In this document: positions 2,583 through 27,616 of the stretch, piece after piece | Layout of the letters: the number at the start of each line of letters is the position of its first letter | Numbering within the stretch: position 1 is the first letter of the stretch | Source of the DNA: a virus | Direction: 5' to 3' (one strand) | DNA: 64,000 nucleotides | IMG/VR virus record: IMGVR_UViG_3300002026_000021 | The notes under the pieces: model-generated | The model's database searches: none | What the model was told of the DNA's origin: nothing | Seen by the model: the letters and a program-made list of their open reading frames with translations, nothing else | Program-made: the position numbers and the translations under genes

Positions 2583-3431
2583 CTAGGCACTTTGTTTAGC
2601 ATTTGAGGTTATTTCACTCAGATACTCTTTTGCGTTCGTTCCTGACTTATAATACTCACCTAACTTAGGGTCAGCAATATGGAAGTCTATAGTTAGTGGT
2701 ATTCCTAATTGCCATTCTTCTTTAATTTCAAATATTTCATATACTTTAAGAATTACTTTAATTAATTCAGGTCTATATAAGTAGAAATCAGCAGAGTCAT
2801 GAGTCATAGACCAAATACGAGACTTTAGTCCTGAACGCCTTGCCCATCTATTAAACTTAACAATAGCTGGCATAATAGTTCCAATAGCTTCTAATGACTG
2901 TATCTCAGAATTAGCACCAATATTAACCATACCAGATATTTCTTTATAATCATCATCAGTACCACTTAACATTAATAATGGTAATCGTCTAATAACTCCA
3001 TGATGAGTACGAGTATATCCACATTCTTTAACAATATTCTTATTTCTTTCTATACGCTCTAATAAACCTGGGTAACTCTTAAAGAAGGAAGTTCTAATAA
3101 AGGTAGCACAAGTTAAATAATCTATTGATTCAAAAGGAATAGGTTTATTACGTTTAGTAAAGCTATCAATAATAGAATCCTTTAATGACTCTAATTTATT
3201 TGTAGTAATAAAACTTTCAGCTTGGTTTAAAGACCACATAGGCTCTAATGAGTTCATCATAAAGGTCCAAGGAGATGCCCCGAATAATAATGAGAAATTA
3301 GCTGATTTAGCAATATTTCTAATATCCTCGAAAGGCATTAGTTTCTTTAACTTCTTGAACTCTTTATCATCTTTTAATGGCCTAGTTATCTTTCTAACTG
3401 TCATTTTTCCCACCAATAATAACTTTATCAA
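2583..3431 (-). CDS. family-A DNA polymerase, C-terminal (fingers/palm) fragment carrying motifs B and C
   Basis: RNIAKSANFSLLFGAS matches PolA motif B (RRxAKxxNFGxxYG); MTHDSADF matches motif C (VHDE). Complements the N-terminal half at 43819-45867. Confidence 0.65.
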   Translation of the reverse strand: MIKLLLVGKMTVRKITRPLKDDKEFKKLKKLMPFEDIRNIAKSANFSLLFGASPWTFMMNSLEPMWSLNQAESFITTNKLESLKDSIIDSFTKRNKPIPFESIDYLTCATFIRTSFFKSYPGLLERIERNKNIVKECGYTRTHHGVIRRLPLLMLSGTDDDYKEISGMVNIGANSEIQSLEAIGTIMPAIVKFNRWARRSGLKSRIWSMTHDSADFYLYRPELIKVILKVYEIFEIKEEWQLGIPLTIDFHIADPKLGEYYKSGTNAKEYLSEITSNAKQSA

Positions 3432-3626
3432 AAAATCCAGAATCCCTAATATAATTATAACTTACTGCTGGTATCATAAACCAAGATACTAAGAATGAGA
3501 AAATAAATGTAGAAATAATATCTCCTAATGTCATTTCTACTAATGAAAAATAATCAAATAGTAAAGAGAACATACATCCAAAGAATACACCAGAGAGATA
3601 TATTAAAAACAATATGTCTTGAAACA

Positions 3627-4439
3627 TCATTTATCTAATCCTGTTAGTTCTAAGAATCTTGGTAGTTCATTACACATTTTAATAAAACCTAACTGCCAAT
3701 CTTCAAAAAGTTTATGTGACTTTCTTTGATTATACATAGTCTTTAATGATAAATAATTTGACTTTACTGTCATCCATAGTTCAAACCCTGATGGTAATGA
3801 AGAACGTAATCTCATAAATGCTTCATACTTAGCTTGTTCTAATTCTTTCTTAGTATATTTATCTAAACAATCATTAGAATAAGTAACACCATCATCATTA
3901 AGTTCCATAAACTCTAAGTAATTATAGTATTGAATTAACTCTTTAACAATAGCAATTGAACGAGGGTCTACATACTTATTAAACATCTTATCAAAATTCT
4001 CATCTGAAGCCATTGTAGTTAGTTTATGCATGGTAGATTGAGAAGAAATAATTTGATTAAAATGATATCGTTGGAACTCAGGTGACCAGTATAATGGATA
4101 CTTAACATCAAAGTAAACGTCAATTCCTGATAGAAAGTTATCATGGCCTGACCCAGTTTCCGCTGAACCCAATGATTTAGCTCTACGATTATCTTTATCA
4201 AACTTTTGAGCATTATGCATATCATAACCTTCAGTAGTATTAATGGTTCCTACTGTCATCGGATTTCCAGAAGCTCGAATACTTCTCTCTAATCCAAAAA
4301 CTTCAATATTTGTTATCTCTAACACTTCTGTTTCTCCATATGAATAATTATTTTTCTTAGTCTTTGTATCTCTACACATAGAGTATATACATATTCTTCT
4401 AATTTGGCTATAGGAATTTGTTCTAAAGAATATAAACAT
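3627..4439 (-). CDS. hypothetical protein (270 aa)
   Basis: ORF in track; the SGHDNFLSG / QRYHFNQIISSQSTMH segments were compared with the ThyX motif but do not match convincingly. Confidence 0.5.
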   Translation of the reverse strand: MFIFFRTNSYSQIRRICIYSMCRDTKTKKNNYSYGETEVLEITNIEVFGLERSIRASGNPMTVGTINTTEGYDMHNAQKFDKDNRRAKSLGSAETGSGHDNFLSGIDVYFDVKYPLYWSPEFQRYHFNQIISSQSTMHKLTTMASDENFDKMFNKYVDPRSIAIVKELIQYYNYLEFMELNDDGVTYSNDCLDKYTKKELEQAKYEAFMRLRSSLPSGFELWMTVKSNYLSLKTMYNQRKSHKLFEDWQLGFIKMCNELPRFLELTGLDK

Positions 4440-8122: not shown

Positions 8123-8165
8123 ATTATCTCCTACTTAAAGTATATACTAAAAACATTTAATTGTC

Positions 8166-8197
8166 AATAAAAAACCTGAAATATTTCTACTTCAGGT
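8166..8197 (-). terminator. intrinsic terminator (duplicate of the 34527-34560 hairpin) followed on the minus strand by a TTGACA-N17-TATACT promoter (8138-8166)
   Basis: aaaaaaCCTGAAatatttctaCTTCAGGtttt. Confidence 0.6.
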
Positions 8198-8207: not shown

Positions 8208-8717
8208 CTATAGCTTTAAACTCTTCAAAAACTCAGAATACGTTTTGAACTTCTCTTTCAGTTCTTTTAGTAAGGTACTTTCTTGTAAATTAAATTTATT
8301 ATAAACATAATTTACATATTCATTATCATAGAGCTTCTTTCTTCTTGCATTAAGCTTTTTAACCTCTGCAAAAACTTCTTCCTCGGTAATCTTATATGCT
8401 TCTGCTAAGTATCTTTTAATGTCAGGCTTAGAGCTAATTTCAAATTGACAAATAGGACAATAAGCTTCTTTAAGATAATCATCATCATACCTACTTTCGT
8501 CTTCTTCATCAATATCAGCACTAAGCATTAATTCATCAATACTCTGGTCATCGGTTTTGATAACTTCTTCATCACAGATAGTATGACCATTTTCACAATT
8601 AACAAATTCATACTCCCTATAATCATCACCATCATAAATTACTTCTGTTCTACCACAAATATCACAAACGAAGGATGATGATGAAGAGTTTGAAACGAAT
8701 CCTAATCTTGTTTTCAA
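8208..8717 (-). CDS. paralog 1 of the MKTRLGFVSNSSSSSF family (169 aa; Zn-ribbon CDICG..CPICQ)
   Basis: Identical 16-aa N-terminus shared with the ORFs at 8714, 9025 and 9409; divergent remainder. Confidence 0.6.
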   Translation of the reverse strand: MKTRLGFVSNSSSSSFVCDICGRTEVIYDGDDYREYEFVNCENGHTICDEEVIKTDDQSIDELMLSADIDEEDESRYDDDYLKEAYCPICQFEISSKPDIKRYLAEAYKITEEEVFAEVKKLNARRKKLYDNEYVNYVYNKFNLQESTLLKELKEKFKTYSEFLKSLKL

Positions 8718-9028
8718 TTATCTGTACCTCCATCTGTATACCAACTAATATCACTAATAGTAATAGTAAGTTCAGGGAATAATTTATTAATCTTTTCTAC
8801 AAGTTCTTCTTTAGTCTGTTTAATGGTTTTTTCCTCATCAATCTTTTCAGGATATACCCCTAAAAATAAGCCATCATAATCAGAGATACCATAAGAATAA
8901 TCAAATTCTTCATAATTATGGTAATCCATTTCATCAAACTTCTCTCGTTGTTCACCCGATAATGAAATTCCTAATAAACAGAATGAACTAGAACTACTAT
9001 TACTAACAAATCCTAATCGTGTTTTCAT
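8714..9028 (-). CDS. paralog 2 of the MKTRLGFVSNSSSSSF family (104 aa)
   Basis: Conserved N-terminus encoded with synonymous codon differences. Confidence 0.6.
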   Translation of the reverse strand: MKTRLGFVSNSSSSSFCLLGISLSGEQREKFDEMDYHNYEEFDYSYGISDYDGLFLGVYPEKIDEEKTIKQTKEELVEKINKLFPELTITISDISWYTDGGTDN

Positions 9029-9405
9029 TCTTCCTCCTCATCTAAATAATCTTCCTCAAATTCTTCATAATCGCCAGAACTCCATCTGTCATGATAATCA
9101 ACTTCAAAAGTATAAATCATATCCCCTGGCTCTAATGAATTAATTTCTTCTAATGTTAATGCTTCACCATTACCCTCATTTACTACTTTCTTTACTGCAT
9201 AAAATTCACAGTCTTGAAACTCTTTTCCTTTGTATTTAGTTTTAAACTTATCATCAAGTTCAAAGGCTTCTACACCTTCAGTAAGACTTGAACCAATAAA
9301 CCAAACTGATTTGTAATCATCAACATCTTCAAAACTAATTTCCTTACCTATTAATACGAATGAAGATGATGATGAATTAGAAACGAATCCTAATCGTGTT
9401 TTCAT
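9025..9405 (-). CDS. paralog 3 of the MKTRLGFVSNSSSSSF family (126 aa; highly acidic C-terminus)
   Basis: Conserved N-terminus; C-terminal DYEEFEEDYLDEEEE. Confidence 0.6.
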   Translation of the reverse strand: MKTRLGFVSNSSSSSFVLIGKEISFEDVDDYKSVWFIGSSLTEGVEAFELDDKFKTKYKGKEFQDCEFYAVKKVVNEGNGEALTLEEINSLEPGDMIYTFEVDYHDRWSSGDYEEFEEDYLDEEEE

Positions 9406-9408
9406 TAA

Positions 9409-9771
9409 TTACCCCCAATGATTTCTTTGTATTGCAATATTCTCTAAAGCTTCTTGAATCCCCCAAGGAATTGAATTATCATCAGTTGAATCAATAACTA
9501 ATACTTCTTTATAGTCTTTTTCATCTAGGTATATTTTAGTAGTATTACAAGAATAATTAAAATCTCTAACCCTATCAAAATAACTCTTAGAATTAATTGT
9601 ATAAATAGTACAAATTTCATCAACAGTTTCATTAAAAGTATCATCAATAATTTTAATTGATTCTATTTGTTTTTCTATAAATTCTCTTATTTGACCTTCA
9701 GTAAACTTCTTTGGGTCAAGAATAAAAGAACTAGAAGAACTGTTGCTAACAAATCCTAATCGTGTTTTCAT
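9409..9771 (-). CDS. paralog 4 of the MKTRLGFVSNSSSSSF family (120 aa)
   Basis: Conserved N-terminus. Confidence 0.6.
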   Translation of the reverse strand: MKTRLGFVSNSSSSSFILDPKKFTEGQIREFIEKQIESIKIIDDTFNETVDEICTIYTINSKSYFDRVRDFNYSCNTTKIYLDEKDYKEVLVIDSTDDNSIPWGIQEALENIAIQRNHWG

Positions 9772-10364
9772 TAGTGTGTCCTATATGCCGAAACAGTTAG
9801 GTTCATATCAGCGAATCCTCTTACACCTAAATCAGCAGAAGATACATATGAAGTAGTATTAGCTGATTTAAAATTCATTGATTGAGCTTCACCAAATACA
9901 TCAAAATTAGCACCTAAAAATACAAATTCCCAATTATACTTATCTTGCTGGTGTTTAATCTTTTCCCCTAATTCTTTTTTATCATTATAAGGGTAATTAG
10001 ATTGATTCTCTTGACCATCAGTCATAACTACAATCATTACTTTTTCTGGTCTATTAAACTCTTCTTCTTCAGATAATGCTAATCCAACTTCATCAATAGT
10101 TTTCCACATTGCTTCTAATAAAGCAGTACCACCAGAAGGACGATAATCTTTCTTAGTAAATTTATCAATAATTTGGATTGATATCCTATTCATTTGTTTT
10201 ATAATATTAGTATCAAATTGAATTAATGTAAACTTAGCGTCTCCTGGTAATTTCTTCTGTTCTTCAATAAAGGTGTTTAATCCACCGATGACATCTGATT
10301 CAGTTCCACCCATTGAACCAGACTTATCTAAAATTAATACTATTTCTGTTAATCCTTTCTTCAT
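9771..10364 (-). CDS. von Willebrand factor A (vWA) domain protein
   Basis: LILDKSGSMGG is the MIDAS DxSxS motif; a later Thr/Asp follows. Confidence 0.6.
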   Translation of the reverse strand: MKKGLTEIVLILDKSGSMGGTESDVIGGLNTFIEEQKKLPGDAKFTLIQFDTNIIKQMNRISIQIIDKFTKKDYRPSGGTALLEAMWKTIDEVGLALSEEEEFNRPEKVMIVVMTDGQENQSNYPYNDKKELGEKIKHQQDKYNWEFVFLGANFDVFGEAQSMNFKSANTTSYVSSADLGVRGFADMNLTVSAYRTH

Positions 10365-12831: not shown

Positions 12832-13332
12832 AATTCCACGATTAACGTGATATACCTATGATGCTGAAATTTCCTATTGATAGGAGCCTTTATTTCAATC
12901 CACGATTTAACGTGAGGATGTATCTCATTATTGAAATAGGAAAAAAATGAGTAATGGTTGTCTCAATCCACGTTAAATCGTGAGGTAGCAACCTAAAGAA
13001 GTTCTTAAAACCTATTTTGATGTGCTTATTCCAATCCACGATTAACGTGATGTAGCAACAAGGATGTGTATTTTGACATTACTTCATTTTATGGGTTCCA
13101 ATCCACGACAAAGCGTGAGGTAGCAACTGCAACCCGTCATTTGAGTTAGCATGTTTATACAAGTCTCAATCCACGCTTGCGCGTGAGGATACATCCGTAT
13201 GTATACTGATTACGTGACAACCTATCTGTAGTCTCAATCCACGACAAAGCGTGAGGATACATCATAAACGGAACGATTTTGATTGTCGGTGATGAGCTGT
13301 CTCAATCCACGACAAAGCGTGAGGATACATCT
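12832..13332 (-). CRISPR. CRISPR array: 7 well-formed repeats plus 1 degenerate terminal repeat, 7 spacers (~36 bp each), period 68 bp; transcribed on the minus strand from the leader at 13333-13513
   Basis: Repeats begin at 12893, 12961, 13029, 13096, 13164, 13232 and 13300. Consensus on the plus strand is TCTCAATCCACGACAAAGCGTGAGGATACATC; the last two copies are identical. Repeats degenerate towards 12832, the leader-distal (oldest) end. The stems CCACG/CGTG(A)GG are conserved while the loop varies (compensatory pattern). Confidence 0.92.
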
Positions 13333-13513
13333 CTATCACTCTTAATTCCTTTATCTACTTAACTTTATTATTCTACTTCCGCGAACCTCATTTACAATAG
13401 ACAATATATAGTATGTCAAAGACCTTAATACTATTATAAATATTTATACTATAACATTTTATTAAACTCCGAGAACCTATTAACTTTTTCTGTTAGCTAT
13501 AGGTTCGCGCTAC
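13333..13513 (-). promoter_or_regulatory. CRISPR leader (AT-rich), with a candidate promoter (TTGACA-N17-TGTAAA, minus strand, near 13395-13425) and a 10-bp inverted repeat (GCGAACCT / AGGTTCGC) at both leader ends
   Basis: About 80% AT; TTGACA read on the minus strand from plus 'tgtcaa' at ~13420; inverted repeats at 13378-13390 and 13500-13513. Confidence 0.45.
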
Positions 13514-13978
13514 TTAGTAAATAAAAAATAACCCAAATCCTAATCGTTTAGACCGACCATACCCTGATACTAACATCTCAGAAAACTTCTTATTATCTTT
13601 TACTTTAATAGTACCAGAAATAAAGTAAGGGTAAAAATAATGATTCTTTTCTCTAATATAAATTGGTTCTTCTTTAGTGATATCACAATTTAGTACTTCA
13701 AAGATATCATTACTATTTAACTTTTCATATACACTATCATGGTCAATAGGTGTCTCAAAATTATCACTACGTTTAACTCCATTAAAACGTAAACAAAAAT
13801 CTAATACATCATTATCATTATACTTAGTTTCTACTTCAATACCTTTAGTACCTTGCTTCTCTGATAATACATAACAAATATTATCAATATCTATCCATAA
13901 TGCTTTTGAATCAAATTTAGCTACTTCCTGATGAGTTAAGTAATACGTTTCTTTCATAGGAACTGAATGTAAATACAT
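13514..13978 (-). CDS. cas6: miniature Cas6/Cas5c-like RAMP endoribonuclease (candidate crRNA-processing enzyme)
   Basis: C-terminal GYGRSKRLGFG matches the RAMP G-rich loop consensus GxGxxxxxGxG; the gene is immediately adjacent to the leader/array on the same strand; only 154 aa. Confidence 0.6.
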   Translation of the reverse strand: MYLHSVPMKETYYLTHQEVAKFDSKALWIDIDNICYVLSEKQGTKGIEVETKYNDNDVLDFCLRFNGVKRSDNFETPIDHDSVYEKLNSNDIFEVLNCDITKEEPIYIREKNHYFYPYFISGTIKVKDNKKFSEMLVSGYGRSKRLGFGLFFIY

Positions 13979-13979
13979 A

Positions 13980-14981
13980 TTATTTCTTCTCCTTTTTCTT
14001 CAATTCTCTTTCCTCTTTTCTAGCTAATATCTGTTCAAATTTATATTTGTTCAGATTAGTCGGTTCAAATGGATAGATATTAGGCTTGAAGTCTTCATAA
14101 ATATCTTCAATACTCTTAATATACACCATACCACCTTCTAATATATTAGCAAATCCTGGCCCATTTGTCAAGTCCTCATAGAACTTATCATCAATAGTTA
14201 ATTCAATATTACCATTAGTATCAATAACAGTAAAAGGGAATAATCCAACTTGACGAGCAACTAAAGGATTTCCATCCTGAGTCATTCCATTCATAGCCTT
14301 TATTATACCATTTTCATTAGGGCCTAAAATTAAATCTCTAAGTGGTTCTTTATATTTAAGTTTCCTTACAGTAATATTATTATCCTGTTCTGTTACTGCC
14401 CGAATATCACTATTACTTTTGTTCTTATTAAGAATAGTAAATATCTTAGCAATAGGAACTGACCTATAATTATCTCCAACATACTTTTTAGCTAATTCTG
14501 TAAATGCTTTTAATTCAGTTTCATTGAAATAATTTAAGAATCTTTCCCAAGTTAATATACCACAATTTACTTGATAAGGAGTATCACCATAAATAATAAT
14601 ATTACTTGATGGGAGCCATTGATTATTCCCTTTTAAATACTTCCTAAATTGAATAGTCATTTTAGTAGGGATAGTTGTTAATGTTATTCTAGCTGTTTTA
14701 GCAGTAGTCAATGCATTTATATCAAACTCTCTTTTAGTCCTATAGATTGCTTTCCTTGAGATAGTTTGCTTATTAGTTAATACACTTAATACGTTTGCCA
14801 TAGTATGAATATCTATATAGGGAGCGTACTCCTTAGTATTAGGAACAAAGGTCTTAAACTCCCTATTATATTTAGAATAAGAATCTTTGGGAATCCTAGA
14901 ACCCTTCATTACTCCTATAAACCCACACTCTTCAAAATGGATAACCTCTGCATTAGTAAATCTTAAAGTAAGTTTTCTCAT
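13980..14981 (-). CDS. cas5: Cas5-like (possibly Cas5/Cas8-substituting) Cascade subunit, 333 aa
   Basis: Position between the Cas7-like gene and the Cas6-like gene; N-terminus MRKLTLRFTNAEV resembles Cas5 N-termini. The assignment rests on context only. Confidence 0.4.
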   Translation of the reverse strand: MRKLTLRFTNAEVIHFEECGFIGVMKGSRIPKDSYSKYNREFKTFVPNTKEYAPYIDIHTMANVLSVLTNKQTISRKAIYRTKREFDINALTTAKTARITLTTIPTKMTIQFRKYLKGNNQWLPSSNIIIYGDTPYQVNCGILTWERFLNYFNETELKAFTELAKKYVGDNYRSVPIAKIFTILNKNKSNSDIRAVTEQDNNITVRKLKYKEPLRDLILGPNENGIIKAMNGMTQDGNPLVARQVGLFPFTVIDTNGNIELTIDDKFYEDLTNGPGFANILEGGMVYIKSIEDIYEDFKPNIYPFEPTNLNKYKFEQILARKEERELKKKEKK

Positions 14982-14995
14982 ATTATTTCCTATTA

Positions 14996-15032
14996 CAAAA
15001 AAAATAGCCTACTATAATAACAGTAGGCTTTT
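14996..15032 (-). terminator. intrinsic-terminator-like hairpin inside the cas operon (between the Cas7-like and Cas5-like genes)
   Basis: Minus strand reads AGCCTACTgttattatAGTAGGCT followed by T8. Confidence 0.6.
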
Positions 15033-15037
15033 AAAAA

Positions 15038-16087
15038 CTATTCAGTTAAACCACGAAGCTTAACATAGAAAGGAAAAGGTTCAATAAAGATTTCCTCAAT
15101 ATCTGTAGTTGTCTCAAGTTTAATAAAGTCATTACTACTAAAAAGATTACTATTCTTAGTAGGATTAGTAATACCCTGATATTCTAATGATGAGGTTTTA
15201 GCATATCCATTATTTCTAGTAATCATAACAGAAGCAATATTATTGAACAAATATTTAATAAGATAATTAATCTGTTCTATAGTTAATAGGATACCAAGCT
15301 GTTCAGCTTTTTCAACTTGATTTGTTCTATAGAAATATCCTGCCTGAGTATTTTTATCAATATCTAACCCAGTATTCTCTTTGAATGAAGCAATAAATAC
15401 ATCAATATTATCAGGAAGTAAACTCATACTTCCAAACCTATCATCCATATCAATAAACATTAAATTCTGAAGATTGATAGCACCTTGGTATTCATAAGTA
15501 ATTTCCCCAACAGTTTCAATAGTAAATATTGCATTATTATCTTTATCCCCATTATTGGAATTAAATAAGAATGATGGAAAAGCATTGTTTGATTGAATTG
15601 CATGAGAAACAGATACTACATTTCCTCTTTTGAGTAAATCATTCTCTTTAAGAATTTCTGTATCTTCAACATTTTCAACTTCTTCAACATTATCAGTATT
15701 TTTTTCCTTCTTATTACTTTTCTCCTTCTTACTATTAGTTTCCATATATCCTCGGAGTAACATCCCTGGATGCCCAATTAGTTTAGCTAAATATTCATTC
15801 TTACCTCTATAGGAACGAATATAATTCGGCATATCCTTTTCAAAGATGCTATGACGAAGGCAATTACTAGAGATAATTATCTTTCCTTTAAGTTCATCTC
15901 CAATCTTTTCCTTAACATGCTTTGCTACTTTAATATTAGTTACTTTCTTATGCTTAACATAAGGAACTTTGAATCCATAAGACTTAGTATAAAAATCTTC
16001 CTCCTCAAAAGGAATTCCTCCATTGTAATTAACAATACCATTACCGTTCATAGTACCCTTAAAGAAAATTGTCTTAACTCCATTCAT
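15038..16087 (-). CDS. cas7: Cas7-like Cascade backbone subunit, 349 aa
   Basis: N-terminal Gly/Asn-rich segment FFKGTMNGNGIVNYNGG resembles the Cas7 (Csd2/Csh2-type) N-terminal motif; position directly after cas3; followed by an intrinsic-terminator-like hairpin. Confidence 0.45.
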   Translation of the reverse strand: MNGVKTIFFKGTMNGNGIVNYNGGIPFEEEDFYTKSYGFKVPYVKHKKVTNIKVAKHVKEKIGDELKGKIIISSNCLRHSIFEKDMPNYIRSYRGKNEYLAKLIGHPGMLLRGYMETNSKKEKSNKKEKNTDNVEEVENVEDTEILKENDLLKRGNVVSVSHAIQSNNAFPSFLFNSNNGDKDNNAIFTIETVGEITYEYQGAINLQNLMFIDMDDRFGSMSLLPDNIDVFIASFKENTGLDIDKNTQAGYFYRTNQVEKAEQLGILLTIEQINYLIKYLFNNIASVMITRNNGYAKTSSLEYQGITNPTKNSNLFSSNDFIKLETTTDIEEIFIEPFPFYVKLRGLTE

Positions 16088-16088
16088 A

Positions 16089-18317
16089 TTATATCTCCTT
16101 AAAATTTAAACCAATTCCAATTTTAGAATCAGTTGATGAACAATACTGATGAAGTAAATCCATAAAAGGAAATTCCTCTATTTTAGATTTATCCACCCAT
16201 TCGTCAATATCATTATCTGTTAACTCCTTTCGTTCATTAAACTTCTTATTTAAGAATCTTTCTAATTTAGAACTATCAACTTCTTTAAGAAAGCGTTCTA
16301 ATCTCTTTCTAGTATATGCAACTTTTTTAGTTTTGTCAATAAAGAAATCTCCTGAATTAACATTTAATTTTGTGAACTCATTATTAGTATTATATACATA
16401 ATAATTATAATTATCAGTACTTGACCTAAGTGACTTTCCTTTCCTAGATTCATCAATTTCATACTTCCTAAAGAAAATAGTATTTGAAGTGTCTTCTCCT
16501 TCTTTTTTAATACTATTAAGATACTCAATAATATTACTTTTATTATCAATATTAAAAGCATTATATAAAGAGTAAAAATCATTAATAGTCAATACTCTAT
16601 CAGCAATATTTTCTTTAAAGAATGTATCTATGATAGGTTTAAAGTTCTTATTATATTTGCCCTTCCATAGATATGCTTCAGAGGAACTACTCTTCATTTC
16701 AGGAGATAAAAACTTAATATCTGTAGTAGTATACTCTCCCCAACGTGAAATTCTTCCTAATCGTTGTAATATAGATTCAAAAGAAAATAAAGTAATTTCC
16801 CCTGATGAATAAGAAACATCCATAGCTTTCTCACCAATGAAAGAAGTAATAAAACTCTTATCGACATTATTCATTGTGTTCTTACCAAAGTACTCATAAA
16901 TCTTAGTAAGTATTTTATATTTATCTTCATCAGTATACCTACTATGTAATAACAAATCTAAATTAGAATTAAGATAATTTTGTTGAACTTGTTTAATTGT
17001 ATTAAAGAAATAAACACATCCTGATTTTTTTTCAGGAGTATATAGTTCATCGATATTCTTTAAAGAACAAGCAAACTTAGTTTTATTAAAAGATTTAAAA
17101 TGTTCATCATTAGAGGGTAGTACATCAATATTAGTTTTATTACTAATAAATAAATTATGATGCCAAGAAGGAGTAGCACTTAATAATAATGTATTACACT
17201 TTATTCTACTAGACCTAATTTGCATTATTCTTAAAAATAAGGAATATAGTCTAGGAGAATCAGATAATGAATGATACTCATCAAAGATAATATTTCTATT
17301 AAACATATTAATAGCATACTCTAGCATATGAGATTTATACAAAGAGAAATAGTAATTGTCAATATTAGTAACAATTATATCAGAGCTATAATTATTGCCT
17401 TCATCTGTTGAACTTACTACGGATGAAGAGAGAAATAATTCCACAGATATATTAATATTATTACATTTGATTTCAGTAAGAATATTATTATATACAGAGG
17501 TAGCAGTATTATTATCTGGACAAACCCAAATAGTCTTTTGTTTATACTTATGAATCCAATATAGACCCATTAGTGTTTTTCCATATCCTGTAGGAGCTTT
17601 TATGATTGCTGTTTTATTTTTAATGCTATCTATAATAGGTTTTTGCTCTGATTCAAATCTGTATTTATAGTCTTCGTTAATAGTAATAGAGAAATCTAAA
17701 TCATTACTACTTTCCTCAATATCTTTTGAAACAAGTCTATCAGCAGTAAATAAAATACTTCTAATAATTAGAGTATCATTAAAATCACCACATTTATAAT
17801 TAAATATGGTTGGGGTAGAGTAATCATTAGTAGAGTCTTTCCTTCTAAAATTAATATACTTCCAGTCTCTTTTTGAGAGAAGCTCTAAATATACTTTTTC
17901 TAGTATCTCTAAGTCCTCACTAGAAATAAAACTCAAAATTTCATTAGCTGAAGAAAAATAATATTTTTCCTTTAATCTTAGAGATACCGTATTATATACA
18001 TATGTACGGTGTGAGAAGTATAAAGAATCTAAAATAGCTCCTTCATCATCAGCTTGTATTTTTTTAATTATAAATGCCCAAGCTACTTCATTATGATGAG
18101 GATATAAGTAATTACTTTTTAATTCTCCTTTTAATTGCTTCTGAAATACAGGAAGAACTTTACCAATATCGTGAAAAAGAGTTACAAATAATACTCGTTC
18201 TCTAGTCTCTTCATCAGAATTAAAATAATTAGAAAAATAATTATCAGCTTTGTTCATAACGGCAAGAGAATGACTTAAAATTGTAGATTCAGAATTCGCT
18301 GGTTGATTTAAATACAT
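16089..18317 (-). CDS. cas3: Cas3 HD-nuclease/SF2-helicase (742 aa, no Cas2 fusion)
   Basis: N-terminal HD domain (LSHSLAV ... VTLFHDIGK); helicase motif I APTGYGKT; motif II FDEYH (DExH); motif III LLLSATPS. Consensus promoter directly upstream at 18355-18383. Confidence 0.85.
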   Translation of the reverse strand: MYLNQPANSESTILSHSLAVMNKADNYFSNYFNSDEETRERVLFVTLFHDIGKVLPVFQKQLKGELKSNYLYPHHNEVAWAFIIKKIQADDEGAILDSLYFSHRTYVYNTVSLRLKEKYYFSSANEILSFISSEDLEILEKVYLELLSKRDWKYINFRRKDSTNDYSTPTIFNYKCGDFNDTLIIRSILFTADRLVSKDIEESSNDLDFSITINEDYKYRFESEQKPIIDSIKNKTAIIKAPTGYGKTLMGLYWIHKYKQKTIWVCPDNNTATSVYNNILTEIKCNNINISVELFLSSSVVSSTDEGNNYSSDIIVTNIDNYYFSLYKSHMLEYAINMFNRNIIFDEYHSLSDSPRLYSLFLRIMQIRSSRIKCNTLLLSATPSWHHNLFISNKTNIDVLPSNDEHFKSFNKTKFACSLKNIDELYTPEKKSGCVYFFNTIKQVQQNYLNSNLDLLLHSRYTDEDKYKILTKIYEYFGKNTMNNVDKSFITSFIGEKAMDVSYSSGEITLFSFESILQRLGRISRWGEYTTTDIKFLSPEMKSSSSEAYLWKGKYNKNFKPIIDTFFKENIADRVLTINDFYSLYNAFNIDNKSNIIEYLNSIKKEGEDTSNTIFFRKYEIDESRKGKSLRSSTDNYNYYVYNTNNEFTKLNVNSGDFFIDKTKKVAYTRKRLERFLKEVDSSKLERFLNKKFNERKELTDNDIDEWVDKSKIEEFPFMDLLHQYCSSTDSKIGIGLNFKEI

Positions 18318-20811: not shown

Positions 20812-20892
20812 TACTAGAGTATATTATATATTTTAATTAATGTCAATAAGATAATAAAAAAAAGCATAGTAAATTAATACTATGCTTTAATA

Positions 20893-20965
20893 TCGGAATG
20901 AGTTGACTCGAACAACCGACTGCCCCGCCCCAAACGGGGAACTCTACCAACTGAGTTACATTCCG
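20893..20965 (-). tRNA. tRNA-Pro (anticodon UGG)
   Basis: Folded by hand: acceptor CGGAATG/CATTCCG, D-arm ACTC-AGTTGGTA-GAGT, anticodon arm CCCCG-TTTGGGG-CGGGG, T-arm GGTTG-TTCGAGT-CAACT. Confidence 0.8.
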
Positions 20966-21159
20966 ATTATTTAATTACAACTAAATTATCTATTAATTCA
21001 TCTGTATCTATTTCTTCGTTCCAGTATTGAATTAATAATTCTTTATTCTTAGCATACTGAAGGAACTTTTTATATGTTTTTCATAGGAAGTTCCATGTGT
21101 TCAGCTTCGGTAAGGATAGAATCTTCATCAAGTTTACGCATTTTAACCTCTTGAGTAAT

Positions 21160-21188
21160 AGTATAGCATATTTAATTAGTATTGTCAA
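21160..21188 (-). promoter_or_regulatory. sigma70-type promoter TTGACA-N17-TATACT
   Basis: Minus strand: TTGACAATACTAATTAAATATGCTATACT. Confidence 0.55.
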
Positions 21189-21294
21189 TAGGTAAAAATA
21201 GAAATAAAATAATAGGAGATGTAGGAGTTGGACCTACTGTGGCAGTTTATAAGACTGCTCCTCAAAACCGTCGAGGACACCTCCAATGTTAACT

Positions 21295-21522
21295 TCAATC
21301 AAATTCTGCTGACTCTAAATTATCTTCCCAACCCTCTCTTTCATCCTCATCCATATCTTCCCAATCACAACCTGTAGGCTCATCAAAATCTTGGTCATCA
21401 GTACTAGGTTCTTTATGAAACTCATTACAGCCACAACCACTACAGGCTAACCAGATTAAATCTGCTTCACTAATAGTACAAGCAAACTCATGAGAACCAC
21501 ATTCATTACAAACCCAGTCCAT
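21295..21522 (-). CDS. Zn-ribbon / acidic protein (75 aa)
   Basis: CNEC ... CSGCGC; acidic C-terminus. Confidence 0.5.
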   Translation of the reverse strand: MDWVCNECGSHEFACTISEADLIWLACSGCGCNEFHKEPSTDDQDFDEPTGCDWEDMDEDEREGWEDNLESAEFD

Positions 21523-21614
21523 AATTATTTAACTCCTAATAAAAACTGACTTAATGAATTATACTACATTAAGTCAGTTTTGTCAATATTGTTACTGATT
21601 ATTATTTGATTCTA

Positions 21615-21690
21615 GTGCTAACTAGAAGGATTTGAACCTTCAACAAGCACGGTCTAAACGTGCGGTGTCTGCATTGCACCATAGTGGCAT
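21615..21690 (-). tRNA. tRNA-like gene (perfect T-arm GAAGG-TTCAAAT-CCTTC and an anticodon-like arm GCACG-TTTAGAC-CGTGC, anticodon UAG); the acceptor and D stems do not fold canonically
   Basis: Consensus promoter at ~21714-21745 lies immediately upstream on the minus strand; I could not close the acceptor stem by hand. Confidence 0.4.
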
Positions 21691-21751
21691 TCACTCTACA
21701 ATAATAGTATATACTAAATAACCAGTATTGTCAATTAAAATCGTAAAAATA

Positions 21752-22144
21752 TTAACCATAAATATCTACAAGAGCTTGTTCACTCATGTAGTTATCACAT
21801 TTCCGTATCTTTGAACCCTCAGTGTAAAATTTTAATTCATCTTTTAAGTATTCAATAAAATGAACAGAAAACTCTGCATCGGAGGATTCTAAAAAATCAT
21901 CATCATAGAACATAAACTCTTCACAATACTCATCAATATTTTCTTCTATCTCTGATAGAGGTTTTTGTAAAATAGTATTTATTTTTGCTATATGATATTC
22001 AAAATACTCCATTACAGACTTAGGTGAGCCAAACCCTCCATCAGAAGTAGCAAAGTGTTTTCCAGATACTATTACATAACCAAAGCTATCTTCTTCATCA
22101 AAATCTTCATATGGACCTAAAACAAACCAAAAGGCATTTTTCAT
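21752..22144 (-). CDS. hypothetical acidic protein (130 aa)
   Basis: ORF in track. Confidence 0.5.
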   Translation of the reverse strand: MKNAFWFVLGPYEDFDEEDSFGYVIVSGKHFATSDGGFGSPKSVMEYFEYHIAKINTILQKPLSEIEENIDEYCEEFMFYDDDFLESSDAEFSVHFIEYLKDELKFYTEGSKIRKCDNYMSEQALVDIYG

Positions 22145-22237
22145 TGGTATCCCCTAATAAAGTTAATCTAAGATTAGTATACTAATAAATTCTTTTCTTG
22201 TCAACTACCTTTTAAGATTATCAACAAGAAAAGAAGC

Positions 22238-23020
22238 TTACTCATAGAAATCTTTAATACCATCATACACATCTTTAATGTAAATCTTTCTAACAATATC
22301 TCTTTTATCAGCACCCCAATCATCATCATAATAATTGTATCTTAAAGACTTTGCTTTATACCATTTGGGCCAAAGATGAGCAGAATTAAATTCTTGATGA
22401 AGCCTTTGGTATTTAGAAACACTTTCATCATCATATACCTTTCTTCTATAAATATAGTTTACTTCTACCTTTTTAGAAAACTTCCATAAAGGTTCTTTAC
22501 AACGATATTCATAGTGTTCTGATAATCTCCAACCAGGAACATCTCTTCTAACCTTATTAAAAAAGGTTTTGAGAGGACAGGGAAGTTTTTCATATTCATT
22601 CTCAGTAAGCTTCTTAAAGCCTAAAGGTGCTTCAACTTTCTTTTCACCTTTTCTAGGCTTTCTTACAAATAATCTTCCTGAATAAGAATAGTTATCAAAG
22701 GTAAAGGAGTTCTTATTAGTACTAGGGTATACTAAAAACTTTCTATCGTAAGAATACTGATGAATAGTAATTAATTCTATTAGTTCTTTAAGTTTAGCCC
22801 CCTCGCTAGTTTTACTAATGTCAGGTCTAACAACTAAATACCGATGATACCCATTAAATATAGGAGGGTTAACATCCACCCATTCATAGTTATCAGTAGA
22901 CATCTTTCTAAAATGACATAAATCTCGTTCTTTTTTAAGAATTAATTTATCTTTATTAAGATATTTTAATCTTAAACCTCTTTTTAAGACTCTTTCTTCT
23001 TTATCCATTTGATTTACCAC
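22238..23020 (-). CDS. hypothetical protein (260 aa)
   Basis: ORF in track. Confidence 0.5.
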   Translation of the reverse strand: MVNQMDKEERVLKRGLRLKYLNKDKLILKKERDLCHFRKMSTDNYEWVDVNPPIFNGYHRYLVVRPDISKTSEGAKLKELIELITIHQYSYDRKFLVYPSTNKNSFTFDNYSYSGRLFVRKPRKGEKKVEAPLGFKKLTENEYEKLPCPLKTFFNKVRRDVPGWRLSEHYEYRCKEPLWKFSKKVEVNYIYRRKVYDDESVSKYQRLHQEFNSAHLWPKWYKAKSLRYNYYDDDWGADKRDIVRKIYIKDVYDGIKDFYE

Positions 23021-23292
23021 CTTACAGCTTAATCATAATGGACCTCCTTAATTAGAAATATAGTGCCGGAACCATGAGTCGCACATGGATATAGGGATTT
23101 TCAGTCCCCCCTTTTACTCTTAAAGTATTCTGGCATATGATTATTTTGAAGTCTGCCTATAGCAGTTTAGCTTTTTACGTTACTTATTACTGGTGCATTA
23201 TCGTCATCAACAGTTAGTAACAACTTCAAAGCCGAATTACGAGGTATCTAGGTACTGCCCCTAGCTCCACGGATTAACAGTCCGTACCCTCA

Positions 23293-23829
23293 CTATGACG
23301 GGCCTATACCTCTTATTTCTTCGTGCAATTCTCTATGACAATTCGCACAAACTAAAATACATTTATCAACTTCCTCTAAACTTCTTTTCAGATTTTTTAT
23401 ATCTCCTGAAGAGATACCAAAATCTTTTTGATTAGAATCTTTATGATGAAATTCTAATGCTGTAACTGATTTTGAATACCCACAAATTTCACATTTCCCA
23501 CCCTTATACTCTACAAGAAACTTTTTTCTTCTTTTTCTAAAATCCTCTATAATTTTAGACTTAGATTTTGCGGGGTCTTTACATAATTTACAAACCCCTG
23601 ATACATTATTGTAACTAATTTCTTTATTACATTTGGAACAAAATCTCTTATCTTTTCTTTTTAAAGAAAGACTTATTTTAGCTTTAACCTCTTCTGTTCT
23701 TTCCCTTTTATTAGCACACGATTGAGAACAAAATCGTGGTATTGGATTCTTTTTTAAAGACCTTTTATCCTTTCTCCAATCTTCTAAAAACTCTTTTTTA
23801 CATTTCTCACAAGTAAACATTGGAACCAC
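23293..23829 (-). CDS. HNH homing endonuclease (Cys-rich, zinc-binding)
   Basis: EFHHKDSNQKD ... LVCANCHRELH is an HNH motif; multiple CxxC pairs; embedded in the tRNA cluster. Confidence 0.7.
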   Translation of the reverse strand: MVPMFTCEKCKKEFLEDWRKDKRSLKKNPIPRFCSQSCANKRERTEEVKAKISLSLKRKDKRFCSKCNKEISYNNVSGVCKLCKDPAKSKSKIIEDFRKRRKKFLVEYKGGKCEICGYSKSVTALEFHHKDSNQKDFGISSGDIKNLKRSLEEVDKCILVCANCHRELHEEIRGIGPS

Positions 23830-23882
23830 CTATATAAGCATATACTTAATTAGTATATCTCATTAAGATAGGTTCAAAAATA

Positions 23883-23970
23883 GGTGACTAATGGGATTCA
23901 AACCCATGATGAAGGCTTTCGCCTTAGTGATTCCACAGACCACTCCAATCGCTCACTCTGGCATAGTCAC
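23883..23970 (-). tRNA. type II (long variable arm) tRNA, isotype uncertain (anticodon loop reads CUGUGGA)
   Basis: Acceptor GTGACTA/TAGTCAC; T-arm ATGGG-TTTGAAT-CCCAT; ~19-nt variable arm. Confidence 0.5.
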
Positions 23971-23971
23971 A

Positions 23972-24044
23972 AGCGGTATATCAGGTTCGAACTGATGACA
24001 ACCAATTTGGAAGACTGGAACTCTACCAACTGAGCTAATACCGC
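23972..24044 (-). tRNA. tRNA-Gly (anticodon UCC)
   Basis: Acceptor GCGGTAT/ATACCGC, D-arm GCTC-AGTTGGTA-GAGT, anticodon arm CCAGT-CTTCCAA-ATTGG, T-arm ATCAG-TTCGAAC-CTGAT. Confidence 0.8.
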
Positions 24045-24053
24045 AAAAAAAAT

Positions 24054-24127
24054 TAGTTCCGGTCAGATTTGAACTGACGATAACCGCATAGAAAGTGCGG
24101 TGGCTTAAACCACTCGCCTACGGAACC
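24054..24127 (-). tRNA. tRNA-Glu (anticodon UUC)
   Basis: Acceptor GGTTCCG/CGGAACT, anticodon arm CCGCA-CTTTCTA-TGCGG, T-arm GTCAG-TTCAAAT-CTGAC. Confidence 0.75.
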
Positions 24128-24223
24128 ATTAAACAATAGCAAGTACTCCCGAAGGGTCTTGCACCCTCACTGTTAGGATTTTGAGTCCTATGCCTCTGCT
24201 TTTGGGCTACGGGAGCGTCCTAG

Positions 24224-24302
24224 CCAAGGTGACAAGATTCGAACTTGCATACTCCAATTACTCGGTTAACGACCGTTTAGAAGACGGTTGAGGTACACCT
24301 TG
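24224..24302 (-). tRNA. tRNA-like gene, isotype undetermined
   Basis: Acceptor CAAGGTG/CACCTTG and T-arm GCAAG-TTCGAAT-CTTGT are clear; the D and anticodon arms were not resolved by hand. Confidence 0.45.
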
Positions 24303-24478
24303 ATACTCTACATCTGGACCGTGTGGGTAGCGACCCCTACGTTAACCTTTTCGGTTAGAGCGGAACCTTCCGTCGGCCCTCAGTTAGTGAATTAAAAAAC
24401 GTAGGACGAGAGCATCTCGGTCCCCTTGCCATCTAGGTCATTTTCTAACTCACTATAACAAGTATATACTAATTATCA

Positions 24479-24772
24479 CTAACTGTCAATAGGTTCAGTA
24501 CCGTTTTTCTGATTAATTCCTAAGAAAGTTTTTAATCCATCAGAAATAGAAGTAGGACTAGCATCAGGGTTATTATCAATATACTCAATAGTTTTCATTA
24601 TCATTGAATAAAATGAATTAACAGCTTCATTCATACTAACCATCTGTTTAATAGCTTCATCAGGTTTCTCTTTAACTAACTCAGTAACAGTATCTATCAA
24701 TGATTTAGGTTTAGGCATAAAGTCTGACTCTAATACCTTTCCTGAAGGAAATTCAATAACTGTTGCTGGCAA
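24479..24772 (-). CDS. hypothetical protein (97 aa)
   Basis: ORF in track. Confidence 0.5.
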   Translation of the reverse strand: MPATVIEFPSGKVLESDFMPKPKSLIDTVTELVKEKPDEAIKQMVSMNEAVNSFYSMIMKTIEYIDNNPDASPTSISDGLKTFLGINQKNGTEPIDS

Positions 24773-24775
24773 TTT

Positions 24776-25036
24776 TTACTCCTCTAAAGTAGATACTTTA
24801 AATTTATTATCTTCTGACCAATTAAACATTGGTTTATCCTTACACCAGCTTTCTTCTGTTTTAGTTACATTATTTTTACAAACCCATTCATACTTTCTTC
24901 TTCCATATTTATCAATTCCACCTATATCTTGAGCATAGAAGCATTTTCTATTAGGACAATTTGAATCATACACATAAATATCTTTTTCTTTTACTAGTGG
25001 ATACCATTTGTTGTCTTTTTCTAATTTTAATTTCAT
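24776..25036 (-). CDS. hypothetical protein (86 aa)
   Basis: ORF in track; tandem palindromic repeats immediately upstream. Confidence 0.5.
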   Translation of the reverse strand: MKLKLEKDNKWYPLVKEKDIYVYDSNCPNRKCFYAQDIGGIDKYGRRKYEWVCKNNVTKTEESWCKDKPMFNWSEDNKFKVSTLEE

Positions 25037-25053
25037 TATAAACTCCTTATATT

Positions 25054-25112
25054 ATACCCTATCAGGTATAATTATTACTAATATAACCAAATTATACCCT
25101 ATCAGGTATAAA
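25054..25112. promoter_or_regulatory. two copies of a 20-bp palindromic element ATTATACCCTATCAGGTATA (candidate operator pair) upstream of ORF 24776-25036
   Basis: Direct repeat at 25054-25073 and 25093-25112; each copy contains the inverted repeat TATACC ... GGTATA. Confidence 0.45.
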
Positions 25113-25176
25113 AACGGGATTAGGGAGAATTGGACTCCCATTATCGGCGTGACAAGCCGACGTAATAACCACTATA
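25105..25176 (-). tRNA. tRNA-Asp (anticodon GUC)
   Basis: Acceptor GGGATTA/TAATCCC, anticodon arm TCGGC-TTGTCAC-GCCGA, T-arm GGGAG-TCCAATT-CTCCC. Confidence 0.75.
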
Positions 25177-25180
25177 CGAT

Positions 25181-25267
25181 AATCCCAATAAGCAGGAAGT
25201 TGGATTTGAACCAACGCGAAGGTTTCCCTTACTAGCTTACAAGGCTAGTCTAATCGGCCAGACTATA
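25181..25267 (-). tRNA. tRNA-Tyr (anticodon GUA), type II
   Basis: Acceptor GCAGGAA/TTCCTGC, anticodon arm CTAGC-CTTGTAA-GCTAG, long variable arm, T-arm GTTGG-TTCAAAT-CCAAC. Confidence 0.75.
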
Positions 25268-25283
25268 GGATTCCTGCATTTAC

Positions 25284-25520
25284 TTATTCTAAAAGTTTCT
25301 TAATCTTATATACAGGTAGTGACCCTTCTATCCTACTAGTAATCTTATCATTATCTTTAATAATAATAGTAGGGAATGAAGATATTCCTAATTTAATTAA
25401 AACCTTTTCATCATTTTCTGCATCAAGTTCATGAAAGGGAATTGACTCTTTAACTAAAGCTAACTTTAATGACTTACAAGGTGAACACCATTCTGCTGAA
25501 CAAATAGTTAGTGATTTCAT
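25284..25520 (-). CDS. glutaredoxin/NrdH-like thiol-disulfide redoxin
   Basis: WCSPCK is the CxxC active site near the N-terminus; 78 aa. Confidence 0.6.
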   Translation of the reverse strand: MKSLTICSAEWCSPCKSLKLALVKESIPFHELDAENDEKVLIKLGISSFPTIIIKDNDKITSRIEGSLPVYKIKKLLE

Positions 25521-25720
25521 TGTACTTCCTCATCATCCTCAGTATATTTCGATACCCACATTACTTCATCTTCGTCAATACCAGTTTTTAAACAAGTACC
25601 ATCAGTATTATGAACAACAATATAACCAATTTCTTCTCTAGTTAATAAAAGAGCTAAACTATCATAGGCTATACGTTTAAATACATCTAATTGCTCATCA
25701 TCTTCAATATGTATTTTCAT
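25517..25720 (-). CDS. hypothetical acidic protein (67 aa)
   Basis: ORF in track. Confidence 0.4.
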   Translation of the reverse strand: MKIHIEDDEQLDVFKRIAYDSLALLLTREEIGYIVVHNTDGTCLKTGIDEDEVMWVSKYTEDDEEVQ

Positions 25721-26001
25721 AATCCCTCTTTATACTTACACCCTAAATATATATGACCTTCTTTTTCTAAAACTTTTTCATCAAGACGTTTCCTTACTCC
25801 TGAACCTTCTGGAAAGGAAAGTTCTTCACAGCCCTTATATGGCATTCCAGTAGGATGAGAAAATCTGCTAGGCCAATTTATAGTACCTACTTTCTCTTCA
25901 GGACAAACACATTGATTACTACTACCAAATATTTCATTAGTCCTTTTTTCTCTACTTCTAAACCATTTACAATTAACTATTTTTTCCACCTTATCCTCCA
26001 A
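25717..26001 (-). CDS. hypothetical protein (94 aa)
   Basis: ORF in track. Confidence 0.45.
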   Translation of the reverse strand: MEDKVEKIVNCKWFRSREKRTNEIFGSSNQCVCPEEKVGTINWPSRFSHPTGMPYKGCEELSFPEGSGVRKRLDEKVLEKEGHIYLGCKYKEGL

Positions 26002-26149
26002 AAAAAGAAGTATAGAAGTTTCCTAGACCTTTACCATCAGGCTCATTACGCTCACAAAGGTATTATAGAGCTACTATAACAGCTTTGCTAATCATTGGCA
26101 TGAATCGACCTCACTTCAGAAACTCCCTAGTCGTTATATACTTCTTTAA

Positions 26150-26221: not shown

Positions 26222-26229
26222 AAAATAAA

Positions 26230-27528: not shown

Positions 27529-27533
27529 AAATA

Positions 27534-27614: not shown

Positions 27615-27616
27615 AT

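Follow-up and report, generated by a model that had tools for sequence, protein, structure and literature searches.

A candidate two-subunit family-A DNA polymerase of uncultivated phages, broken at what may be the split site of a degenerate split intein

Family-A DNA polymerases are textbook single-chain polymerases. In the 64,000-nucleotide (nt) stretch of viral DNA that we analyzed (IMG/VR record IMGVR_UViG_3300002026_000021, which we will call the window), the sequence of a family-A polymerase (PolA) is divided between two genes, the N-half and the C-half. As had been predicted from the sequence, they lie about 40 kb apart with a strand switch: they are separated by 40.4 kb and are on opposite strands, each reading away from the other. 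The N-half consists of an N-terminal domain (residues 1 to about 200), a 3'-5' exonuclease, the thumb, palm motif A, and a DLH segment, and the C-half consists of the fingers O-helix with motif B followed by palm motif C. The features of the two genes are as follows (aa, amino acids).

43819-45867, plus strand: PolA N-half gene, 682 aa (open reading frame with Pfam and profile matches)
44494-44517, plus strand: Exo I, AYDIETDS, N-half residues 226-233
44647-44667, plus strand: Exo II, GQNLKFD, N-half
44884-44907, plus strand: Exo III, YASLD, N-half
45586-45618, plus strand: palm motif A, SLDYASLQIRL, N-half residues 590-600
45679-45705, plus strand: DLH segment, DLHSTTGYD, N-half residues 621-629
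45724-45864, plus strand: N-half C-terminal tail, residues 636-682, acidic, with four predicted beta-strands
2583-3404, minus strand: PolA C-half gene, 273 aa from the ATG at 3404
3375-3404, minus strand: C-half leader, the first 10 residues (MTVRKITRPL), basic
3323-3273, minus strand: motif B, IRNIAKSANFSLLFGAS, C-half residues 28-44
2807-2784, minus strand: palm motif C, MTHDSADF, C-half residues 200-207

Translation confirmed that both open reading frames (ORFs) are real and that each motif quoted in the original prediction is found at its predicted residues. However, the C-half had been taken to be 282 aa long, starting from a TTG at 3431. Its true start is almost certainly the ATG at 3404, because GGTGGG lies 5 nt upstream of this ATG, because database gene calls also give a protein of 273 aa, and because the N-terminal pattern M-x-[IV]-x-[RK] is kept from residue 1 in 16 homologues.

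Between them, the two proteins contain the catalytic motifs of a proofreading family-A polymerase. The exonuclease signature is in the N-half (DxE in Exo I, NxxFD in Exo II, and YxxxD in Exo III), as is the DYSQIELR-like motif A, which reads LDYASLQIRL and has D592 as the catalytic Asp. Motif B (RxxxKxxNFxxxYG) is in the C-half, where RNIAKSANFSLLFG aligns to R754, K758, and F762 of Klenow; the equivalent of Klenow Y766 is Phe. Motif C of the C-half is THDS, which keeps the catalytic Asp. This motif reads HDS rather than the usual HDE, and the Ser is invariant in 16/16 C-half homologues, so that Ser stands in place of the second carboxylate of the Klenow D882/E883 pair throughout the C-half family.

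The N-terminal domain of the N-half (43819-44420, residues 1 to about 200) precedes the exonuclease and occupies the place of the 5'-3' nuclease of Pol I. It is an alpha/beta domain that is conserved and confidently modelled, it has the motif FYDFIFNKTYFY...VFPID, and G112, F129, F134, F139, and P150 are invariant. It has no match in Pfam, and it is also found in unsplit relatives.

The two halves cover the polymerase consecutively. The N-half matches the Pfam family DNA_pol_A_exo1 (E = 1.9e-14, residues 205-376) and only positions 5-196 of the 381 positions of DNA_pol_A (E = 3.3e-19), and the C-half matches positions 240-376 of DNA_pol_A (E = 6.2e-11). In the PHROG_17 profile, the N-half covers 652-1043 and the C-half covers 1053-1228. 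Along the Klenow chain, the N-half aligns from 13 to 417 (the last aligned segment is DIHRATAAE), and the C-half aligns from 430 to 448 (QRRSAKAINFGLIYG, motif B) and from 467 to 594, which includes motif C. Thus, the halves do not overlap on Klenow or on the PolA profiles, and the contiguous junction that the original prediction proposed to look for is there. The break lies inside the polymerase domain, at Klenow residues ~740 to ~753, between motifs A and B.

When the halves were concatenated (955 aa, 51-row alignment) and modelled with AlphaFold2 (AF2), they formed a single Klenow-like protein, with a predicted local distance difference test score (pLDDT) of 90.2 and a predicted template-modelling score (pTM) of 0.86. 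The model spans the whole of its targets Klenow and Bst, with template-modelling scores of 0.80-0.86 (normalised to the targets) and Foldseek E-values of 1e-26 to 1e-22. The complete Klenow-like fold is reached only with both halves together. Also, of the 78 window ORFs that are 90 aa or longer, exactly two match DNA_pol_A, and none matches another polymerase family.

The split is not peculiar to this genome but is a family-wide condition. In a search of about 5.8 billion proteins, we found 16 homologues of the C-half (36-100% identity, 260-278 aa), all of which stand alone, and about 30 homologues of the N-half (mostly 677-745 aa). A C-half profile, searched against 1.84 billion cluster representatives, matched 198 of them at E <= 1e-30. 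We classified 166 relatives, namely the 16 C-half homologues, the unsplit protein P0046, and 149 representatives (mostly of clusters at 50% identity), by what they carry at the break point:

49 of 166: stand-alone C-halves that start at profile position 1
8 of 166: stand-alone C-halves that open with a genuine intein C-fragment
10 of 166: fused proteins with a long insertion at the break point
8 of 166: fused proteins with a short insertion
48 of 166: fused proteins with no insertion
43 of 166: fragments or not classifiable

So, unsplit orthologues do exist in relatives, as it had seemed worth checking (P0046, P0119, and P0120). Among isolated phages we found no close relative: tblastn of either half, or of the related C-half P0125, against 50,697 GenBank phage records gave at most 33% identity. 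A scan of IMG/VR with a single protein gave no match, but scans of IMG/VR with alignments did give matches.

Both halves are well conserved. D228, E230, D283, Y356, D360, and D592 are invariant in 27 homologues of the N-half, and R29, K33, N36, F37, F41, G42, and H202-D203-S204 are invariant in 16 homologues of the C-half. That the catalytic residues of the exonuclease and of motifs A, B, and C are invariant down to ~35% identity argues that both halves are under purifying selection. In a crude neighbour-joining tree, P0119 and P0120, which are fused with an insertion, are the nearest neighbours of the window's clade, and split and fused-with-insertion forms interleave elsewhere, which fits repeated fission or re-fusion at the fingers loop.

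The separation of the halves is also seen outside of the window. Both are on the 69,786-bp GenBank whole-genome-shotgun contig JFJP01 (genes _15 and _89), and the region around the N-half (33819-49836) is matched by a separately built Logan assembly (L013) at 99.994% identity, or 1 base in 16,018, although this assembly may come from the same sample as the window. The relatives show a variety of layouts:

Ga0207193_1000675 (61.8 kb): N-half, 75-aa ORF, and C-half on one strand
SRR15116522_291057 (33.2 kb): halves 13.1 kb apart on opposite strands, a window-like topology
UViG_3300025162_000021 (170.6 kb) and 3300009502_000025 (94.1 kb): both halves on one strand and 38.2 kb apart, the C-half upstream
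UViG_3300009093_000034 (305.8 kb): halves 206 kb apart on opposite strands

At at least 8 more loci, the partner is not within 10 kb. At those of these loci that hold an N-half, the ORF ends in the conserved tail in all that were translated, and at those that hold a C-half, the conserved leader is at the start in nearly all. Every sufficiently long contig that we examined carries both halves. As the distances and orientations of the halves differ among relatives, genomic rearrangement of the halves has occurred repeatedly, and because the gene order around them also varies between relatives, no single event accounts for the layouts. The original prediction had offered two explanations, an unusual rearrangement or a polymerase whose two subunits assemble in trans: rearrangement is seen, and more than once, and the data above and below support assembly in trans.

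What lies at the break itself suggests how the gene was divided. After the DLH segment, all of the split N-halves, which number in the dozens, have a conserved tail of ~47 aa with the pattern F-x-I-x-E-[IV]...G...F...E-[IV]-x-V-x-R-x-G...[IV]-x-A-x-D-L-x-E-[TS]-D-x-L, in which one Asp is nearly invariant. The unsplit proteins P0046, P0133, and P0128 do not have this extension. In the unsplit proteins P0119, P0120, and P0145, the tail is an internal insertion that runs on into KIISIEKVERKLKDVKEF, and this segment aligns with the N-terminus of the C-half (MTVRKITRPLKDDKEF). The C-half leader aligned with KIISIEKVERKL of P0120. If the window's halves are joined end to end, the junction is only 3 residues shorter than in P0120, so the gene is cut inside a beta-rich insertion of ~60 aa at the tip of the fingers, ~25 residues upstream of motif B. 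The original prediction noted that the break falls at a position where introns or inteins interrupt some phage PolA genes. It does lie between motifs A and B, but the motif-B intein site of the sister proteins is ~25 residues further downstream.

In the AF2 model of the concatenated halves, the tail forms four strands and a fifth strand is formed by residues 685-690, which are residues 3-8 of the C-half; the pLDDT of the insertion region is 69-88. A 77-aa model of the insertion alone has a pLDDT of 90. When this model was compared to the Protein Data Bank (PDB) with Foldseek, 13 of the top 14 matches were inteins, and the top match was the Aes123 PolB1 split intein (none of these scores is significant singly, and the evidence is the exclusivity of the intein matches). 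A sequence profile of the tail also has the Aes123 intein as its best intein match, and the alignment, which is weak (E = 0.12), covers residues 73-113 of an N-fragment that is 120 residues long, stopping only a few residues short of its C-terminus. Given the published boundaries and lengths of the Aes123 N-fragment (PMC11923092), the aligned part comprises the block-B segment together with the N2 lobe, as far as the natural split site. The 49 stand-alone C-halves share a leader of the form MLKIx[KR], which resembles the opening strand of true intein C-fragments such as that of P0252 (LKIKRITKK...VYCVNV...SKN/SINFG). Furthermore, the tails carry a mean net charge of -3.2, which makes them acidic, whereas the leaders are basic (mean charge +2.4 over 12 residues in the 49 stand-alone C-halves), and the fragments of split inteins are likewise of opposite charge (PMC11923092). 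The most likely explanation is that the ~60-aa insertion is the remnant of a degenerate split intein and that the break is at the canonical split position. We interpret the tail as the N2 lobe of the degenerate N-fragment, ending at that site.

The residues for splicing are missing. We found no conserved Cys or Ser as the first residue at the boundary between host and insertion (the block A nucleophile); the variable Cys of VFC[KR] is Ala or Val in the fused proteins P0133 and P0128, which do not have the full ~60-aa insertion. Only about 11 of the 29 tails have the His of block B (TxxH) at the aligned position, and the window has YELQP there. In the C-half, blocks F and G and the terminal His-Asn followed by Cys, Ser, or Thr are not present, and after ~10 residues the protein continues with host sequence (R.L..EKEF), as in unsplit relatives. 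The true intein C-fragments of sister proteins do show HN and the nucleophile (P0129, ...YVQHN/CNFG). With a relic of just ~60 aa that lacks the catalytic blocks of both splice junctions, we do not expect ligation.

Given these results, we think it likely that the two genes encode a two-subunit family-A polymerase whose chains associate non-covalently, that a degenerate split intein marks the break, at its canonical split site, and that no splicing takes place. The contiguity of the halves, their conservation, their variable arrangement, the absent splicing residues, and the Hint-like predicted fold were all established by computation; the physical assembly of the halves, the role of the tails, and the intein origin are what we infer from them. 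In this proposal, a replicative family-A polymerase would be built from two separately encoded polypeptides. The N-half (682 aa) would bring the N-terminal domain, the proofreading exonuclease, the thumb, the motif-A Asp, and the first part of the fingers, and the C-half (273 aa) would bring the O-helix with motif B and the motif-C Asp. As motif A is on one chain and motifs B and C are on the other, the active site would exist only in the heterodimer. The N-half would retain the N2-lobe part of the intein N-fragment, the C-half would retain only the first strand of the C-fragment, and the halves would not be ligated because the catalytic blocks at both junctions are gone. The tail, which is acidic, and the leader, which is basic, probably dock with each other as complementary strands, which would add to a large native interface between palm and fingers and hold the chains together non-covalently. 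Because the halves need not stay adjacent, rearrangements have carried them to various places from phage to phage. More tentatively, a split intein that no longer splices may survive across a large clade of uncultivated phages as a module for non-covalent docking, with an active site shared by two chains whose genes are 13-206 kb apart; we would give this slightly less than an even chance.

Several points weigh against this proposal. The assembly and activity of the two-chain polymerase are deduced from sequence and models, and the input of the full-length AF2 model was the covalently concatenated sequence, a choice that favours docking. Motif C is unusual in having HDS. The window is 64 kb of a larger genome, and a second polymerase could be encoded elsewhere. 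The case for an intein origin comes mainly from predicted structure: Aes123 is only the second-best PDB match of the tail profile and is not significant; Pfam searches with eight insertion segments gave nothing significant (the best was Hint_2 in one segment, E = 0.18); and Smith-Waterman comparisons to two genuine inteins from sister proteins were not significant (z <= 3.7). The AF2 models disagree about which segment forms the fifth strand, since the C-half leader segment is a coil in the insertion-only model, so the exact pairing is uncertain. Finally, the order of insertion, split, and re-fusion is not settled by a tree as crude as ours.

If the docking of tail and leader is set aside, the enzyme could still have two subunits, with the tail and the leader as neutral scars of gene breakage and assembly through the native interface of palm and fingers alone. 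The halves are predicted to share a large interface within one globular fold, the leader is a coil in the domain-only model, and the tails of the split NrdA of phage Aeh1 are reported not to be needed for heterodimer formation (PMC3045599). Nevertheless, we consider neutral scars unlikely because the length and pattern of the tail and its nearly invariant Asp are kept in every split N-half that we examined, down to ~35% identity, the leader is conserved in the 49 stand-alone C-halves, and their opposite net charges are maintained. The Hint-like predicted fold could also be read in the other direction, as an active but atypical split intein that joins the halves by protein trans-splicing, especially as sister proteins have real inteins and split inteins (a C-fragment at motif B that ends in HN/C in P0129, and contiguous inteins in P0124 and P0033). 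This seems extremely improbable: the relic of ~60 aa is far shorter than the contiguous motif-B inteins of P0124 (152 aa) and P0126 (147 aa) or the fragments of natural split inteins, which total about 140 aa (PMC11923092); the relic starts without the conserved Cys or Ser, and the block-B His is usually missing; the leader strand runs straight into host sequence, without block F or G or the terminal residues; and fused homologues hold the insertion in frame.

It is also conceivable that the ORFs are decaying fragments or have diverged in function (the N-half might be a stand-alone exonuclease, for example) and that another polymerase replicates the genome, as only part of the genome is in the window and motif C is HDS instead of HDE. 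This would be very surprising, as all of the catalytic residues of polymerase and exonuclease are invariant in both halves across deep divergence, the halves co-occur on every contig that is long enough, and no other polymerase family is in the window; the HDS is itself invariant and hence a trait of the family and not a sign of decay. Finally, the separation could be an artefact of assembly, or the halves could be rejoined by programmed DNA inversion or by RNA trans-splicing. A single inversion of roughly 3631-45869 would give the window the order N-half, 78-aa ORF, C-half, as in the adjacent layout of Ga0207193_1000675. We give almost no credence to this, as the surroundings of the N-half recur in the second assembly, the nearest relatives have uncoupled layouts as well, the stop codon of the N-half directly adjoins the following gene, and the C-half is equipped with a ribosome-binding site of its own and a conserved start. 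Inverted or direct repeats between ~3370-3720 and ~45780-45960 were not above a shuffled background and none appeared in a whole-window repeat scan, so we rejected programmed inversion; we rejected rejoining at the RNA level because the window has no group I or group II intron (no relevant Rfam family was found in it, only tRNAs).

The proposed two-subunit enzyme resembles several known systems. In gene-breaking models, the last step is the genomic uncoupling of the two parts, and the DnaE of cyanobacteria and the PolB of Nanoarchaeum are split polymerases with uncoupled halves and active split inteins (PMC2677866). In these and in Aes123 PolB1 (PMC11923092), as probably here, a polymerase is broken at the position where an endonuclease inserts in the intein, the halves can be far apart and on opposite strands, and the fragments are oppositely charged; for Aes123 PolB1, there is also the alignment of our tail to its N2 lobe. 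However, in the window the blocks at the splice junctions are missing, the relic is ~60 aa, and the two chains stay separate, and the polymerase is of family A and not of family B or C. Aeh1 NrdA is a fragmented enzyme that is assembled via tails of mobile-element origin (Crona et al. 2011, PMC3045599). There too, an essential phage enzyme is split by a mobile element, the active site comes from two polypeptides with insertion-derived tails, and neither RNA splicing nor protein splicing is involved. But the Aeh1 genes have stayed next to each other, on either side of the mobE endonuclease, and have no Hint-like tails, whereas here the halves are dispersed, there is no endonuclease gene between them, and the tails look intein-derived.

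Family-A phage polymerases that are encoded by two genes, with non-covalent reassembly predicted, are known from the T7-like cyanophages S-SBP1 and S-TIP37 and from the LUZ24 group (PMC10201439; PMC3517423; PMC12695635). Those breaks are at the boundary of the exonuclease and the polymerase, whereas the break described here is in the polymerase domain and the active site would be shared; and the cyanophage genes are drawn side by side in a locus alignment, whereas here the genes are 13-206 kb apart. All of the family-A splits that we found reported separate the exonuclease from the polymerase domain, and we came across no account of a PolA that is split within its polymerase domain and has dispersed halves and a Hint-like relic. 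Split PolB without inteins is described for Methanothermobacter and for Aeromonas T4-like phages (gp43A/gp43B) (PMC2677866), and the minimal Pol III alpha of jumbo phages is split between distant genes (PMC7824862). These are also replicative polymerases from two genes, which are sometimes distant, with a heterodimer presumed or shown, but they are of other polymerase families and have other split sites. To our knowledge, no Hint-like element has been reported at their breaks. MEP401 has the layout of Ga0207193_1000675 (N-half, small ORF, C-half), but there is no detectable relationship: the window's C-half and P0125 match no such phage in the GenBank phage collection. Nor does the family look like the "fractured genes" of Dassa et al. 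(2009), in which a free-standing homing endonuclease lies between the halves. By Pfam, the 78-aa ORF upstream of the C-half has no endonuclease domain and indeed no match at all, the 75-aa ORF between the adjacent halves of Ga0207193_1000675 has no Pfam annotation in the contig's precomputed gene table, and in most genomes the halves are not adjacent.

The cut through the polymerase domain, with motif A on one chain and motifs B and C on another, has been kept in dozens of deep lineages of large uncultivated phages, and so it seems that an obligately heterodimeric PolA is viable and stable in evolution. Should the break be a fossil split intein, then it records what follows the loss of splicing, with the association kept while the chemistry decays, which is an untested step in gene-fracture models. 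Gene breaking would then have a natural end-state that lies one step past the known split inteins. The tail and leader would be a candidate natural heterodimerisation module of ~60 aa. In practice, annotation pipelines will label such split genes as truncated or partial polymerases, and these phages will be miscounted wherever PolA serves as a survey marker.

The two genes are preceded by similar promoter-like sites, and a small ORF adjoins the C-half. The sites are matches to the consensus only:

43773-43801, plus strand: promoter-like TTTACA-17-TATACT, 18 nt upstream of the N-half ATG
8139-8167, minus strand: promoter-like TTGACA-17-TATACT, the nearest strong one upstream of the C-half
~2514, 8139, 10383, 12789, 16310, 18354, 20102, 21557, 21705, 24460, 29096, and 39932, minus strand: copies of the promoter-like element
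47169 and 48586, plus strand: copies of the promoter-like element
3394-3630, minus strand: 78-aa hydrophobic ORF directly upstream of the C-half, whose last 11 nt overlap the C-half start

An AGGAG ribosome-binding site lies between the site at 43773-43801 and the N-half ATG. The site at 8139-8167 would head a leftward unit of nine genes with the C-half as the last, and an identical site is at 2514-2542, past the stop codon of the C-half. The TTGACA-N17-TATACT element is within a longer conserved motif of ~32 nt (TATTGACAAAAC...TAGTATATACTT) that is mostly intergenic, belongs to repeat families D3, D4, D8, and D10 along the leftward block, and divides this 40-kb block into many units. The recurring elements are probably early promoters for the sigma-70 polymerase of the host. 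As like sites precede each of the halves, both could be early genes under the same class of promoter, although consensus matches are weak grounds for this. Relatives of the window carry a small ORF (72-93 aa) at the same place upstream of the C-half, but we rejected homology among these ORFs, which have only 15-33% identity.

The window has a G+C content of 31% and contains genes for replication and for nucleotide metabolism; no capsid or terminase family is among its top Pfam matches. Other features of the window are:

20892-27796, minus strand: 15 tRNA genes (Pro, Phe, His, Gly, Glu, Leu, Arg, Asp, Thr, Trp, Gln, Cys, Tyr, Lys, Ser)
12892-13331: CRISPR repeats, six copies of 33 nt (GTCTCAATCCACGACAAAGCGTGAGGATACATC) with a 68-nt period
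13514-13978, minus strand: Cas6-like ORF (E = 5e-8)
13980-14981, minus strand: 333-aa ORF, possibly Cas5
15038-16087, minus strand: Cas7fv (E = 2.6e-18)
16089-18317, minus strand: Cas3fv with HD and helicase domains (E = 5.7e-41)
8208-9775, minus strand: four tandem small ORFs (169, 104, 126, and 120 aa)

The cluster of 15 tRNA genes is consistent with the genome of a large lytic phage. The phage-encoded CRISPR-Cas locus (12892-18317, minus strand) looks like a minimal variant of type I-F; Cas1 and Cas2 are not among the 25 Pfam families listed for window ORFs of at least 90 aa, in which no targeted search for them was made. A sequence of ~54 nt (…AATCCTAATCGTGTTTTCAT…, repeat family D1) is at each junction of the four tandem ORFs, which suggests that they are paralogues with identical N-termini.

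Related contigs of 94 kb and 80 kb have the large subunit of ribonucleotide reductase in two adjacent genes (352/368 aa and 530 aa), at the following places:

L010 13395-16073 and L011 13346-16072: split ribonucleotide reductase large subunit, with Pfam Intein_splicing in the first gene

This break is probably an active split intein, in the same genomes as the non-splicing split PolA. Inteins are also abundant at other sites of PolA in this clade. There is a LAGLIDADG intein in Exo II of P0033, motif B is interrupted by contiguous inteins in P0124 and P0126, and several proteins have split-intein C-fragments at motif B (P0129 and P0252, for example), including one at locus L022 that has no N-half within 10 kb. 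P0131 is another of the proteins of this clade with inteins or splits at other sites, and P0047, P0207, and P0226 are apparently split at motif A.

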